Assembly (NCBI RefSeq): GCF_003334335.1
Contig: NZ_QOWQ01000017.1
DNA: 64,000 nt
DNA from: Escherichia coli
GTDB lineage: Bacteria; Pseudomonadota; Gammaproteobacteria; Enterobacterales; Enterobacteriaceae
Direction: 5' to 3' (one strand)
The stretch's first letter is position 1. Each line of letters starts with the position of its first letter. Below the pieces are notes generated by a model that was not told where the DNA came from, made no database searches, and saw only the letters and a list, made by a program, of their open reading frames with translations. Of this stretch, positions 4,219 to 64,000 are shown piece after piece. A program made the position numbers and the translations under genes.

Positions 4219-4554
<336 letters not shown>

Positions 4555-4557
4555 TGC

Positions 4558-5025
4558 GTGAAGCTGCAACTTGTCGCCGTGGGAACGAAAATGCCGGACT
4601 GGGTACAAACCGGTTTTACCGAGTACCTGCGTCGTTTTCCGAAAGATATGCCCTTCGAGCTGATTGAAATTCCGGCCGGAAAACGCGGCAAGAATGCGGA
4701 CATCAAGCGCATACTCGACAAAGAGGGTGAGCAGATGTTGGCGGCCGCAGGCAAAAACCGCATTGTCACCCTCGATATTCCAGGCAAGCCCTGGGATACG
4801 CCGCAGTTAGCCGCTGAGCTGGAACGCTGGAAGCTGGATGGTCGCGACGTCAGTCTACTGATTGGCGGGCCTGAAGGGTTGTCGCCTGCCTGTAAAGCGG
4901 CGGCTGAGCAGAGCTGGTCGCTGTCGGCGCTTACCCTCCCCCATCCGCTGGTTCGCGTGCTGGTCGCAGAGAGTCTGTACCGGGCGTGGAGCATCACCAC
5001 CAACCATCCTTATCACCGTGAGTGA
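4558..5025 (+). CDS. rlmH: 23S rRNA (pseudouridine1915-N3)-methyltransferase RlmH
   Basis: 155-aa ORF, GTG start 4 nt after rsfS stop. Confidence 0.92.
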
Positions 5026-15723: not shown

Positions 15724-15754
15724 AAAAAAAACCCGCTGATTAAGCGGGTTTTGA
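15724..15754. terminator. Bidirectional rho-independent terminator between convergent crcB and cspE
   Basis: Hairpin aaaaaaaACCCGCTgattaAGCGGGTttt. Confidence 0.75.
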
Positions 15755-15771
15755 ATTCTTGCTGACGTATC

Positions 15772-15981
15772 TTACAGAGCGATTACGTTTGCAGCAGAAG
15801 GGCCTTTGGCACCGTTAGTGATTTCGAACTCTACGCGCTGACCTTCAGCAAGAGTTTTAAAACCATTAGTCTGGATTGCAGAGAAGTGTACGAACACGTC
15901 TTTGCTGCCGTCTTCCGGAGTAATGAAACCGAATCCTTTGGACTCATTAAACCACTTAACGTTACCTTTAATCTTAGACAT
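15772..15981 (-). CDS. cspE: Cold-shock-domain protein CspE
   Basis: ORF 15772..16011; internal ATG at 15981 gives 69 aa [20 protein letters not shown]... Confidence 0.93.
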
Positions 15982-16155
15982 CAAAATTACCTTTACATGA
16001 AAAATAGACACAAATGCTGTGTCGGTTACCAGTACACCAATTGTGGTACGCTTTGTCCAGTGTAACTTTACTAAAAAGTGATAAAAGTCGCGTTATTTTT
16101 GATGTTACTTATTTTAGCTATTGATTTTAAAGAAGTTACTAAAACTTCATTTGTC

Positions 16156-16716
16156 TCAAAACTGAAAGCGCATCCAGGCAAAGTACACATTGCCATTGTT
16201 GTAGGTACCCGGAATGTAGGTCATCTGAAAAGTCACTGGGCCATAACCCACGGAGGCCAATGGCAGTAGAACCGGGAGAGGGATGTAATTCCAGTTATCG
16301 CGTGCCGTTACGCCAGCGGTGAATCCCAGACCTAAATGAAAATTTTCATCCGCCAGCGGTCGCCAGGTACTTTCCCATCCGTATCCGGCAATCGGTTCCC
16401 ATTTGTTCCACGAGTCCTTAAATGCCATGGCATACAGGCCATGCCAGTTTCCTTTTTCATCCCAACGCGACAGGCCAAAACCGCCACCCCACGGTCGCTC
16501 GTTATAGCGATCGGTTTTTTCTTTGTCGTAAGCGAAACGTGCATGCCAGGTGATGGCAGGAATATATAAATCATAATGTTCAGGCTGTTGCCAGGTTTGT
16601 GCAATATTTTCTCTAAACGTTGTCATCCACTCATCTGCGTTAGCAAAAACTTTACCAACGCTGATTAACTGAATAAAAACAAAGGAAAAGATAGCGACAT
16701 ATTTACTCACGTTCAT
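16156..16716 (-). CDS. pagP: Lipid A palmitoyltransferase PagP
   Basis: ORF 16156..16740; start at 16716 gives 186 aa [14 protein letters not shown]... Confidence 0.92.
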
Positions 16717-29076: not shown

Positions 29077-29305
29077 TCATCTGATTTACAAAACACGCTA
29101 ATTCGTCTTCCATAAACCAAGGCGATTAAGATTTATACATAATGCGCTGCATTGAGGAATTCCCTGAATGTGACGCAAATCACTTCAAAGAGTGAGCAAC
29201 AGTCAGTATCATCATGTGAGTTAAACCCTCGCCGCCTGACGGTGAGGGTTTTCTTTTGGGTATGTTTATCTGCGACACTCGCAGCACCGACGACATGGAG
29301 TAAAA

Positions 29306-34328: not shown

Positions 34329-34699
34329 CTATACTTCCTCCGTGTTTTCGATGAGATGTAAGGTAACCAATTTTTGCCGATTCGGCTAATGCGTTTCCAT
34401 TATCAAATCGATAAGTTTTACCTTACAACCTTCGTAAGACAACTTTGTGAACTTTGCACCGCCAGCGGCGATAAAAAGTAAAATGGCCCCCTTTCCAGGT
34501 GACCGTGTAATCTGAACTACCCTTTGGTATCTTCAGTGCCTGCCTGCAGGCTGAGGTGTTGCCCTTACAAATGCAACAACGACATGGATTACAACACCCT
34601 CATAAACAAAGGGCAATCACCTGATCTAAGCTCTTACCTATGACAGTGATAGGTTATGCCTTTTACTCGACTTTTGCACTGACTGAAAAGGACAAATTA

Positions 34700-55234: not shown

Positions 55235-58200
55235 TTACCTGTTTAGCGTTGCGCGAATAATCGGCCCAATTTTTTCAAACGTCCCTGGAGAGATAATATC
55301 CACATGCGCACAATCCTGACGATAGATATCCAGCTCCGCTATCCACGGCGACCAGGCGCGTTCGGGACTCATACCTTCCTGAAGTGTGCGTTCAGCAACA
55401 AACAGCGTCGCTTTACCGTCAAACGGTACGCTATGAGCAGTCGTCAGCAGGCGCACAGCATCAGCGTAGTTGCCTTCAATGGTGGTAAACAACTCCGTTG
55501 AAGTACTTCCCTGCTGTGCTGCCAGGAAGGCCTCGCGTTCGCGGTTAATCTCCGCCAGCACTTCCGGGTCCAGACCATTAGCTTCTTTTTCCTGCCAGTT
55601 TTGCGTTTCTGGCGGCCAGGTATCCAGCAAGCCAAGAAATGCCACCTGTTCGCCACGGGCACGCAGTCGCGCCGCAATACCCTGCGCCAGCGTACCGCCA
55701 AGGGAATACCCCAGCAGGTAATAAGGGCCATGCGGTTGTTGTTCAAGTAACGTTGCCAGATGCGCTTCGCAGACTTCATCCAGGTTTGCCGCCGTCTGCA
55801 TGGGGCCATTGGGGCGCGGTGACTGAATGCCGATAATCGACCATTGTGGATCGAGATAACGCGAGAGCACGCTGAACTGCCAGGCAAAACCGGACGCAGG
55901 ATGGAAACAAAACAGCGTCGGGCCATTACCTTCACGCAACGGCAGAATGGTTTCGAATCCCATACGGCGGGTGCTGTCTTCTTCAGCATCAATAATCGTT
56001 GCCAGTTTGGCGACGGTTGACGCAACCATCACCTGCCCCGGCGTCACCTGACGGGCAAACTGCCGACTTAACTGCGCTGCCAGTTTCATTGCCAGTAGCG
56101 AATGACCGCCAAGCGCGAAGAAATCAGCGTCAGCATCCTGCACGTCACACCCCAGCAACGACGAGAATGCCGCGGCGATAATCGTTTCACTGCCCGCTTT
56201 CGGCGCACGCCCAGGCGCTTGTGCCTTCAGTTCAGGCAACGGTAAGGCTTTGCGATCCAGCTTGCCGTTGGCGCTAAGTGGCAACTGCGGCAGTTGCAGC
56301 AGAACGACTGGCACCATATGCGGCGGCAATGTTTCACGAAGCTGCGCCTGCAATGCGCTGGTATCCAACGGCAGGCCCGATTGCGATACCAGATAGCCCA
56401 CCAACTGACGCGCATCACCACCAGTGGCTGCCGCTTGGTTAATCACACAGGCGTGGGTAACGGCTTGTTCGACATCCGGCAGCGCCTGCATCACGCGATC
56501 GATTTCGCCCAGTTCAATACGCTGCCCGCGAATTTTTAGCTGATCGTCACTGCGCCCGAGGTACTCCACCGCGCCGTTATCCAGCCAGCGGGCAACGTCT
56601 CCGGTACGGTACATCCGTTCACCAGGAGCAAAAGGATCGGCAATAAAGCGGCTGGCGGTCAGATCGGGTCGTCCAAGATACCCCTGCGCCAGTTGAATAC
56701 CGGTGAGATAGAGATCTCCCGCCACACCCGGCGGCACCGGATGCATCATCGCATCAAGAATACGCAGGCCCGTGTTCCACACCGGATAACCAATCGGCAC
56801 ACTGCTGCCGCGCACCTGTGCCAGTTCCTCGCCAAAAGCCGGATACCAGCTGACATCTACCGCCGCCTCCGTCGGGCCATATAGATTATGCAACGGCGCG
56901 CCAGTTAACTGTTGCCATTCGCGGCATAAATCAGCCGGTAAGGCCTCACCACTACAGAAAACCTGTTTCAACGTCGCGCAACTCTGGCGAGCGGTTTGCG
57001 GCGTCAGCGAGGCAACAAACGCCGCCAGCATCGACGGCACAAAGTGCGTGGTCGTTACGCCATATTCGGCAAAGAATTGCTGCATAGCGAGCGGGTCGCG
57101 GTGCGCTTCCGGTTCAGCCATCACCAGTTTTGCCCCTGCGATAAACGGCCAGAAAAACTCCCACACCGAGACATCAAAACTGCACGGCGTTTTTTGGGCA
57201 ACGACATCTTCGCCTGTAAGCGGATAATGATTTTGCATCCAAAGCAGGCGGTTGACGATAGCCGTCTGCCCGACCATTACCCCTTTCGGCCTGCCGGTGG
57301 AGCCAGAGGTAAAGATGATATAAGCCGTGTGATGCGGTTGTGAAAGTTGCAGCGGCGCACTGCCCTGCGGTGTAAGCGGGGCGTTATAGCAAAGGTTGGT
57401 TAAATCTGGAACATCGGCAAAGCGCGGCAGTTGATCGTCGGTGGTGATTAACAGCGACGGACGCGCATCTTCTAGCATCATTTTCAGGCGATCGTCCGGA
57501 TAACCGGTATCCAGCGGTAGCCAGGCCGCACCTGCTTCAACAATCGCATGGAGTGCCAGGGTCAAAAAGACCGAGCGCGGTAGTGCCACCGCCACGCTGT
57601 CCCCTGGTTTAACGCCGCGCTCACGCAGCAGATTCGCCAGCGCCACCACCTGCTCGCGCATTTCCCGATAGCTGAACAGGTAACGCGCATCTGCCAGCGC
57701 CGGAGCATCCGGTGTTTTTGCCGCTTGTTCTGCCACCAGCGCGCTAAGCGTGGTTTCTGGAATCTCAACCTGAGTGGCGTTGAGCTGCGCCAGCTGCGCA
57801 TACTCACCTGGCAGCATAATATCGACATCGCCGCACAACAGCGCCGGATCCGCGGCGAACTGGGCAATCAGCATTTTCAGGCGTTCAGCATGCTGGATTA
57901 ACGTTGGCTCATCGTAACGCTGTTTATTGGCGAGGATCTCAATACTCAAATCACCGTGTACATCCGGGAACAGGGCCAGTTCAAGGTCATTAACCGGACC
58001 GGTTGCCAGGGTATGGGTTTGCGCCTGAACATCAGGAATATCCAGTTGGTAATCAAATACCTTGATATTGAGTACCGGACCAAACAGCGGTTCATCACCT
58101 GCCGCTCGCCCGCTGTCACGGACAATTTGTTCGGCATCGTAACGTTGATGACGACGCATTTTTTTCAGTTGTGCTGCCAGTCGGGTTGCCAGTTCCGGCA

Positions 58201-60778: not shown

Positions 60779-63019
60779 ATGAACAAGAAGATTCATTCCC
60801 TGGCCTTGTTGGTCAATCTGGGGATTTATGGGGTAGCGCAGGCACAAGAGCCGACCGATACTCCTGTTTCACATGACGATACTATTGTCGTTACCGCCGC
60901 CGAGCAGAACTTACAGGCGCCTGGCGTTTCGACCATCACCGCAGATGAAATCCGCAAAAACCCGGTTGCCCGCGATGTGTCGGAAATCATCCGTACCATG
61001 CCAGGCGTTAACCTGACCGGTAACTCCACCAGTGGTCAGCGTGGGAATAACCGACAGATTGATATTCGCGGTATGGGTCCGGAAAACACGCTGATTTTGA
61101 TTGACGGCAAGCCGGTAAGCAGCCGTAACTCGGTGCGTCAGGGCTGGCGTGGCGAGCGCGATACCCGTGGTGATACTTCCTGGGTGCCACCTGAAATGAT
61201 TGAACGTATTGAAGTTCTGCGTGGTCCGGCAGCTGCGCGTTATGGCAACGGCGCGGCGGGCGGCGTGGTTAACATCATTACCAAAAAAGGCAGCGGCGAG
61301 TGGCACGGCTCCTGGGACGCATATTTCAATGCGCCAGAACATAAAGAGGAAGGTGCCACCAAACGCACTAACTTTAGCCTGACCGGTCCGCTGGGCGACG
61401 AATTCAGCTTCCGTTTGTATGGCAACCTCGACAAAACCCAGGCTGACGCGTGGGATATCAACCAGGGCCATCAGTCCGCGCGTGCCGGAACGTATGCCAC
61501 GACGTTACCAGCCGGGCGCGAAGGGGTAATCAACAAAGATATTAATGGCGTGGTGCGCTGGGATTTCGCGCCATTGCAATCGCTGGAACTGGAAGCAGGT
61601 TACAGCCGCCAGGGTAACCTGTATGCGGGCGACACCCAGAATACCAACTCCGATTCCTATACCCGCTCGAAATATGGCGATGAAACCAACCGTCTGTATC
61701 GCCAGAACTACGCGCTGACCTGGAACGGTGGCTGGGATAACGGCGTGACCACCAGCAACTGGGTGCAGTACGAACACACCCGTAACTCGCGTATTCCGGA
61801 AGGTCTGGCGGGCGGTACCGAAGGGAAATTTAACGAAAAAGCGACACAGGATTTCGTCGATATCGATCTTGATGACGTGATGCTGCACAGCGAAGTTAAC
61901 CTGCCGATTGATTTCCTCGTTAACCAGACGCTGACGCTGGGTACGGAGTGGAATCAGCAACGGATGAAGGACTTAAGTTCCAACACCCAGGCACTGACCG
62001 GAACGAATACCGGTGGCGCTATTGATGGCGTGAGTACCACCGACCGTAGCCCGTATTCAAAAGCAGAAATTTTCTCGCTGTTTGCCGAAAACAACATGGA
62101 GCTGACTGACAGCACCATCGTAACGCCGGGGCTGCGTTTCGATCATCACAGTATTGTCGGCAATAACTGGAGCCCGGCGCTGAACATATCGCAAGGTTTA
62201 GGCGATGACTTCACGCTGAAAATGGGCATCGCCCGTGCTTATAAAGCGCCGAGCCTGTACCAGACTAACCCGAACTACATTCTCTACAGTAAAGGTCAGG
62301 GTTGCTATGCCAGCGCGGGCGGCTGCTATCTGCAAGGTAACGATGACCTGAAAGCAGAAACCAGCATCAACAAAGAGATTGGTCTGGAGTTCAAACGCGA
62401 CGGGTGGCTGGCGGGCGTCACCTGGTTCCGTAACGATTATCGCAATAAGATTGAAGCGGGCTATGTGGCTGTAGGGCAAAACGCAGTCGGCACCGATCTC
62501 TATCAGTGGGATAACGTGCCGAAAGCGGTGGTTGAAGGTCTGGAAGGATCGTTAAACGTACCGGTTAGCGAAACGGTGATGTGGACCAATAACATCACTT
62601 ATATGCTGAAGAGTGAAAACAAAACCACGGGCGACCGTTTGTCGATCATCCCGGAGTATACGTTGAACTCAACGCTGAGCTGGCAGGCACGGGAAGATTT
62701 GTCGATGCAAACGACCTTCACCTGGTACGGCAAGCAGCAGCCGAAGAAGTACAACTATAAAGGTCAGCCAGCGGTTGGACCGGAAACCAAAGAAATTAGT
62801 CCTTACAGCATTGTTGGCCTGAGCGCGACCTGGGATGTGACGAAGAATGTCAGTCTGACCGGCGGCGTGGACAATCTGTTCGACAAACGTTTGTGGCGTG
62901 CGGGTAATGCCCAGACCACGGGCGATTTGGCAGGGGCCAACTATATCGCCGGTGCCGGGGCGTATACCTATAACGAGCCGGGACGTACGTGGTATATGAG
63001 CGTAAACACCCACTTCTGA
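60779..63019 (+). CDS. fepA: Ferric enterobactin outer-membrane receptor (TonB-dependent)
   Basis: ORF 60719..63019; ATG at 60779 gives 746 aa with signal peptide MNKKIHSLALLVNLGIYGVAQA and TonB box DTIVVTA. Confidence 0.95.
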   Translation: MNKKIHSLALLVNLGIYGVAQAQEPTDTPVSHDDTIVVTAAEQNLQAPGVSTITADEIRKNPVARDVSEIIRTMPGVNLTGNSTSGQRGNNRQIDIRGMGPENTLILIDGKPVSSRNSVRQGWRGERDTRGDTSWVPPEMIERIEVLRGPAAARYGNGAAGGVVNIITKKGSGEWHGSWDAYFNAPEHKEEGATKRTNFSLTGPLGDEFSFRLYGNLDKTQADAWDINQGHQSARAGTYATTLPAGREGVINKDINGVVRWDFAPLQSLELEAGYSRQGNLYAGDTQNTNSDSYTRSKYGDETNRLYRQNYALTWNGGWDNGVTTSNWVQYEHTRNSRIPEGLAGGTEGKFNEKATQDFVDIDLDDVMLHSEVNLPIDFLVNQTLTLGTEWNQQRMKDLSSNTQALTGTNTGGAIDGVSTTDRSPYSKAEIFSLFAENNMELTDSTIVTPGLRFDHHSIVGNNWSPALNISQGLGDDFTLKMGIARAYKAPSLYQTNPNYILYSKGQGCYASAGGCYLQGNDDLKAETSINKEIGLEFKRDGWLAGVTWFRNDYRNKIEAGYVAVGQNAVGTDLYQWDNVPKAVVEGLEGSLNVPVSETVMWTNNITYMLKSENKTTGDRLSIIPEYTLNSTLSWQAREDLSMQTTFTWYGKQQPKKYNYKGQPAVGPETKEISPYSIVGLSATWDVTKNVSLTGGVDNLFDKRLWRAGNAQTTGDLAGANYIAGAGAYTYNEPGRTWYMSVNTHF

Positions 63020-63058
63020 TGCTAACGTCAGATTGTTGACAAAGTGCGCGTCGTTCAT

Positions 63059-63157
63059 GCCGGATGCGGCGTGAACGCCTTATCCGGCCTACAAAAATCT
63101 TGCCAATTCAATATATTGCAGGACCATGTAGGCCTGATAAGCGTAGCGCATCAGGCA
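63059..63157. repeat. BIME: two REP elements in inverted orientation downstream of fepA
   Basis: GCCGGATGCGGCGTGAACGCCTTATCCGGCCTACA at 63059-63093 and tgtaggcctgataagcgtagcgcatcaggca at 63127-63157. Confidence 0.85.
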
Positions 63158-63193
63158 GTTTTGCGTTTGTCATCAGTCTCGAATATGGTCGAT

Positions 63194-63814
63194 ATGAAAA
63201 CTACGCATACCTCCCTCCCCTTTGCCGGACATACGCTGCATTTTGTTGAGTTCGATCCGGCGAATTTTTGTGAGCAGGATTTACTCTGGCTGCCGCACTA
63301 CGCACAACTGCAACACGCTGGACGTAAACGTAAAACAGAGCATTTAGCCGGACGGATCGCTGCTGTTTATGCTTTGCGGGAATATGGCTATAAATGTGTG
63401 CCCGCAATCGGCGAGCTACGCCAACCTGTCTGGCCTGCGGAGGTATACGGCAGTATTAGCCACTGTGGGACTACGGCATTAGCCGTGGTATCTCGTCAAC
63501 CGATTGGCATTGATATAGAAGAAATTTTTTCTGTACAAACCGCAAGAGAATTGACAGACAACATTATTACACCAGCGGAACACGAGCGACTCGCAGACTG
63601 CGGTTTAGCCTTTTCTCTGGCGCTGACACTGGCATTTTCCGCCAAAGAGAGCGCATTTAAGGCAAGTGAGATCCAAACTGATGCAGGTTTTCTGGACTAT
63701 CAGATAATTAGCTGGAATAAACAGCAGGTCATCATTCATCGTGAGAATGAGATGTTTGCTGTGCACTGGCAGATAAAAGAAAAGATAGTCATAACGCTGT
63801 GCCAACACGATTAA
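63194..63814 (+). CDS. entD: Enterobactin synthase 4'-phosphopantetheinyl transferase
   Basis: ORF 63044..63814 begins inside the REP elements; ATG at 63194 gives 206 aa MKTTHTSLPFAGHTL... (alternative ATG at 63185). Confidence 0.88.
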   Translation: MKTTHTSLPFAGHTLHFVEFDPANFCEQDLLWLPHYAQLQHAGRKRKTEHLAGRIAAVYALREYGYKCVPAIGELRQPVWPAEVYGSISHCGTTALAVVSRQPIGIDIEEIFSVQTARELTDNIITPAEHERLADCGLAFSLALTLAFSAKESAFKASEIQTDAGFLDYQIISWNKQQVIIHRENEMFAVHWQIKEKIVITLCQHD

Positions 63815-63924
63815 TTGACAACATCTGGTACGATTCGCCCGCAGCCATCACTGACCACGGGCGAAAGTGTAAAGCAGGTGCCTTACCATCCTGACCTGAC
63901 AACCGGATATGCGGGGATTACTCC

Positions 63925-64000
63925 CATAAGCGCTAACTTAAGGGTTGAACCATCTGAAGAATGCGACGCCTCGGTGCCTCGTTAAGACGATGCCTCGCGT
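63925..64000. mobile_element. Possible terminus of an IS186-like (IS4-family) insertion sequence, truncated by window end
   Basis: cataagcgctaacttaagggttg resembles what I recall as an IS186 inverted repeat; K-12 has an IS186 copy next to entD. Not verified. Confidence 0.3.

Follow-up and report, generated by a model that had tools for sequence, protein, structure and literature searches.

The window, the 64-kb stretch of Escherichia coli DNA analysed here, ends shortly beyond entD. A spacer of 110 nt separates the entD stop codon, which ends at 63814, from the 23-bp repeat CATAAGCGCTAACTTAAGGGTTG, matched exactly on the plus strand at 63925-63947. The initial annotation had likened this sequence to the terminal inverted repeat of IS186 and had placed its start about 110 bp downstream of entD. 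Both statements hold, and the match to the end of the IS186/IS421 element of MG1655 covers every one of the 76 visible bases, 63925-64000 (100% identity; positions 4526-4601 of the MG1655 locus record L001). With up to three mismatches allowed, CATAAGCGCTAACTTAAGGGTTG had no second match in the window. The features at this end of the window are listed below with the basis for each.

63194-63814, plus strand: entD, intact, 110 nt upstream of the IS end (RefSeq annotation of the identical sequence and ORF list).
63834-63865, minus strand: hairpin with a 14-bp stem between entD and hokE, presumably where the hokE transcription unit originally ended (inverted repeat and fold).
63876-63883, minus strand: putative stranded fold-back (fbi-like) element of the hokE mRNA, AGGCACCU (AGGTGCCT) (predicted fold).
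63911-63924, unstranded: left part of the palindromic target GCGGGG-ATTACT-CCCCGC, split by the insertion (empty-site alignment).
63915-63924, unstranded: left copy of the target-site duplication, GGATTACTCC (12-nt direct repeat around the MG1655 element).
63925-63947, unstranded: 23-bp terminal inverted repeat CATAAGCGCTAACTTAAGGGTTG (exact match, unique in the window).
63925-64000, minus strand: first 76 bp of IS186/IS421, transposase-distal (3') end (identity to L001 4526-4601).

RefSeq starts entD at the ATG at 63194, giving 206 aa. The mechanically called entD ORF (63044-63814) begins at a GTG at 63044, spans the REP region and encodes 256 aa. The fepA-entD spacer at 63030-63170 consists of REP-like palindromes, with gccggatgcggcgtgaacgccttatccggcctac and another copy of it, and the sRNA ES036 was matched by Rfam at 63094-63135 with a marginal score (40.5 bits; gathering score 37.6). 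Elsewhere in the window, Rfam models matched an rnk leader (29152-29260, plus strand; 125 bits), a cspA-type thermoregulator 5' region (15724-16166, minus strand; 124 bits) and, marginally, the sRNA STnc70 (34473-34566, minus strand; 42.7 bits, gathering score 40). Downstream of entD, an ORF at 63815-63985 (56 aa, TTG start) was rejected as spurious, as it crosses the junction from the 3' untranslated region of the toxin gene to the end of the IS.

Host background of the window

An origin of the window in K-12 itself was rejected. Over the 25 kb from 39001 to 64000, the window carries 52 differences from MG1655 and 5 from LR-29-1, its nearest relative; the source strain is K-12-like but not K-12. 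Most of the MG1655 differences (47 of 52) are clustered in entF, at 55967-57542. This 1.6-kb stretch of entF has the appearance of a recombination tract. Two further closely spaced differences from the MG1655 record fall in fepA, at 60983 and 60985; at one of these positions LR-29-1 agrees with the window.

The complete element in related genomes

A junction search was performed with window positions 63400-64000 against 5,426 complete E. coli genomes, and exact matches were obtained in many strains, MG1655 among them. The gene order in MG1655 is fepA, entD, a minus-strand gene annotated as 'IS4-like element IS421 family transposase' and hokE, in agreement with the statement in the initial annotation that K-12 carries an IS186 copy adjoining entD. 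LR-29-1 likewise has entD, the IS4-like IS421 transposase and hokE, and its complete element is identical. The RefSeq product name and the 'IS186/IS421 insL' of the literature denote the same element.

In MG1655 the element occupies L001 4526-5864, or 1,339 bp when the ambiguous bases at its ends are counted in. Its 23-bp inverted repeats are perfect, and a 12-nt direct repeat, GGGATTACTCCC, stands on either side of it, the two copies spaced 1,349 nt apart. The length of the element may be taken as 1,337, 1,338 or 1,339 bp, since G and C occupy the ambiguous positions in every target examined. Published descriptions give 1,338 bp (PMC3562002), or 1,338 bp with an 11-bp duplication, one published duplication being GGGGTGCCCCC (PMC12102499). 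The perfect reverse complement of the window repeat closes the element in the five repeat-bearing loci examined (L001, L002, L004, L007 and L008), all of which hold an element of 1,338 or 1,339 bp. At the hokE site this partner repeat is present in MG1655, LR-29-1 and KFu022, and in the source DNA its position lies beyond the window edge.

A full-length transposase gene was found at four of the five loci, the fifth copy, next to hokC, being annotated as frameshifted. That copy (L007 1799-3136, hokC/mokC, MG1655 record NZ_CP032667.1) is 1,338 bp long, whereas the two other MG1655 copies have one base more; a sequencing error or a genuine mutation of that laboratory stock may lie behind its frameshift. 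The intact transposase has 370 aa and a minus-strand gene whose stop codon, in MG1655 and LR-29-1, lies 172 bp into the element and so outside the window, for which reason the window shows the transposase-distal end. The protein matched the NCBIfam IS4 model NF033592 (133 bits, cutoff 115) and Pfam DDE_Tnp_1 (PF01609; E = 3.6e-26), and it contains the Y-x2-R-x3-E-x6-K signature as YRLRWQIELAFKRLK. The second inverted repeat about 1.3 kb downstream, the target-site duplication beyond the element and the downstream transposase ORF that the initial annotation had proposed to look for were all located in MG1655 and LR-29-1, genomes with the same junction, the ORF being of the IS4 family. Its view that the window ends inside a mobile element is likewise supported by the full element at that junction in both strains. 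Every testable defining feature of IS186 was found, either in the window or in near-identical relatives.

Since only 76 bp are visible, we infer the completeness of the element in this genome from its relatives, and a full IS186 very probably continues beyond the window edge, with high but not complete certainty. The same limit leaves room for a truncated or solo IS186 end, a remnant of deletion or of recombination between copies, since the window stops 76 bp in and completeness is not directly visible; IS copies can mediate deletions, and the hokC copy in the MG1655 record is itself annotated as frameshifted. We nevertheless consider such a remnant improbable. In LR-29-1, only five differences away over 25 kb, the element is complete and hokE follows it. 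Among the 5,426 genomes, the window-type junction was found in 1,727 and the far junction, on the hokE side, in 1,741, and from these almost equal counts copies at the hokE site are nearly always two-ended. Scarcely credible is a resemblance by chance, or a different element with an IS186-like repeat such as a non-autonomous derivative. The initial comparison had concerned the 23-nt repeat alone, but the identity reaches well past it, 53 of the 76 matching bases being internal to the repeat, and the 23-mer appeared in 0 of 100 dinucleotide-preserving shuffles of the window even with up to three mismatches allowed; these two results together rule out a chance match, as far as the window reaches. 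The presence of a 1,338- or 1,339-bp element at all five repeat-bearing loci also speaks against an unrelated element. We put at roughly 95% the probability that the window ends 76 bp into a copy of IS186 (IS421 in RefSeq naming) whose target was the hokE hairpin.

This insertion is the same as that annotated in K-12 as IS186A/insL1 (synonym IS421, IS4 family), and the finding is already known. The two share the 76 bases, the 23-bp repeat, the entD-hokE site, the orientation and the target duplication. No difference was seen in the element itself, whereas the host background differs from that of MG1655.

Target site of the insertion

To predict the empty site, the element was cut out together with one of the two duplication copies, which gives ...ATGCGGGGATTACTCCCCGCACAACGG... 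at the junction. Exact matches to a 255-nt reconstruction of this site were found in many genomes, and the genes annotated there, directly under the match, are entD and hokE. The target is GCGGGGATTACTCCCCGC, the palindrome GCGGGG-ATTACT-CCCCGC (GGGG-N6-CCCC), and the duplication is GGATTACTCC, with a length of 10-12 nt depending on whether bases 63914 and 63925 are assigned to the duplication or to the element. All three MG1655 copies of IS186 lie in GGGG-N6-CCCC with the same cut geometry. The copy beside hokC has GGCGGGGAGTGATCCCCGCC as its target, and the target of the copy in the pdeA-nupC spacer (L008 1261-2599) is CCGGGGAATTATCCCCGG, a terminator-like hairpin. This third copy sits in AAAAAAACCGGGGAATTATCCCCGGCTTTTTT, which resembles an intrinsic terminator that acts in both directions.

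An independent event at the same position was found in KFu022, where an identical element is inserted in reverse orientation at hokE. The same target SNP (ATTGCT) is present in both duplication copies of this strain, which shows both that the duplication is real and that the insertion event was independent. The K-12 hokC/gef copy of IS186 offers a close comparison, as it occupies the homologous hairpin just past the hok stop codon, with the same cut geometry and with the reading frame split from fbi. The hokC locus is, however, a paralogous one, and the MG1655 element there is opposite in orientation relative to the hok gene. Recurrent IS186 insertion at a single GC-rich site in both orientations, as at hokE, is also described for the lon promoter hot spot (PMC3045373). 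The locus differs: at lon a promoter is hit, at hokE a hairpin of the toxin mRNA's 3' untranslated region.

Predicted effect on the hokE transcript

The type I toxin gene hokE is annotated beyond the IS in the relatives, on the minus strand and convergent on entD. Its stop codon lies 11 to 21 nt from the IS, according to how the duplicated bases are counted. The Rfam sok family (RF01794) matched L001 6030-6185 with 84 bits against a gathering score of 59, in MG1655 sequence outside the window, and marks the hokE leader. The initial annotation had described the entD 3' region as an IS junction; the junction is present, and the interrupted DNA belongs to the hokE toxin locus rather than to entD. 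The spacer at 63815-63924 is the stranded 3' end of the hokE transcript, read on the minus strand. A scan of 62900-64000 for promoter and terminator consensus sequences found none, and the hairpin at 63834-63865 lacks a T-run and so does not qualify as a canonical T-tailed terminator.

The hokE transcript was rebuilt without the IS and folded, and hokC was treated likewise. In the rebuilt hokE fold, the target palindrome forms a hairpin just past the stop codon. In the minimum-free-energy structure the 5' end, GGGUGCCU, is predicted to pair with AGGCACCU, which lies close to the 3' end (pair probabilities 0.89-0.999), and the 14-bp-stem hairpin comes next. The rebuilt hokC transcript showed the same predicted closure between its 5' and 3' ends. 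When the IS was left in place, the predicted pairing of the hokE 5' end was replaced by pairing to IS sequence.

On the basis of these folds, the long-range pairing of GGGUGCCU with AGGCACCU is probably the hokE counterpart of the tac/fbi interaction, by which full-length hok mRNA is held closed and is not translated before processing of its 3' end (PMC9841398). For hokC/gef in K-12, IS186 downstream of the coding region has been described as disrupting fbi and normal processing (PMC3562002). From the predicted structures and by analogy with R1 hok and hokC, we infer that IS186 would disable the normal folding and processing of the hokE mRNA. None of the papers in the literature collection searched describes the hokE-IS186 junction directly. 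According to Pedersen and Gerdes in 1999, the hokA, hokC and hokE genes of K-12 are reportedly inactivated by nearby IS150 or IS186.

A second type of insertion sequence was observed at this locus. In KFu022 and Combat13F7 (L002 4186-5098 and L003 1888-3255), an IS150 lies about 100 bp upstream of hokE, at the position of the sok/leader region in MG1655. The locus has accordingly been hit by two IS types, sometimes both in one genome.

Occupancy of the hokE site among E. coli genomes

The 76-nt end was present in 2,144 of the 5,426 complete genomes, a collection that is not a random sample of the species, with a median of 3 and a range of 1 to 22 copies per genome; 740 of its places were on plasmids. 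This multi-copy pattern is as expected of a mobile repeat, and the presence or absence of IS186 varies among strains. In addition to the window-type junctions, IS186 in reverse orientation was found at the same hokE position in 286 of the 5,426 genomes. By simple addition, the hokE site is filled in about 2,013 of the 2,144 IS186-bearing genomes (~94%), and the hairpin is occupied in one orientation or the other in about 37% of the complete genomes. In most of the other genomes the site is empty; the empty form was counted in up to 3,647 genomes, a figure taken as an upper bound because the empty and filled counts together exceed the genome total, and one that probably includes paralogous hokE copies. 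The hokE hairpin is a recurrent hot spot of IS186.

Discussion

In the mechanism proposed here, a DDE transposase would recognise the 23-bp terminal inverted repeats of IS186, an IS4-family element of about 1.34 kb, and the element would enter GGGG-N6-CCCC palindromes with duplication of about 10-11 bp of target. At this locus the target was the GC-rich hairpin just past the hokE stop codon. The transposase gene is co-directional with hokE, and it is this arrangement that leaves the transposase-distal end in the window. The insertion puts about 1.35 kb between the hokE reading frame and the 3' part of its transcript, which is the 110-nt stretch from entD to the IS and includes the fold-back element that would otherwise pair with the 5' end of the hokE mRNA.

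The main significance of these observations lies in annotation. The 110 nt after entD are a stranded piece of the hokE toxin locus and not entD 3' sequence, and because the window ends in a repeat, assembly or mapping across its edge is ambiguous. The only mildly new element is quantitative, namely the ~37% occupancy of the hokE hairpin in both orientations. Filling of the hokE site in ~94% of IS186-bearing genomes, together with the K-12 copy in the homologous hokC hairpin, is the reason for a more tentative reading, in which the hairpin after the hok stop codon would be a specific, recurrent landing pad for IS186 and the relationship more than incidental. Under this speculative proposal, insertions may have been selected as disarming chromosomal Hok toxins, or hok 3' untranslated regions may serve as harmless safe havens that keep IS186 seeded in lineages. 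The hokE hairpin is a clear natural example of target-specific IS insertion beside a toxin gene.
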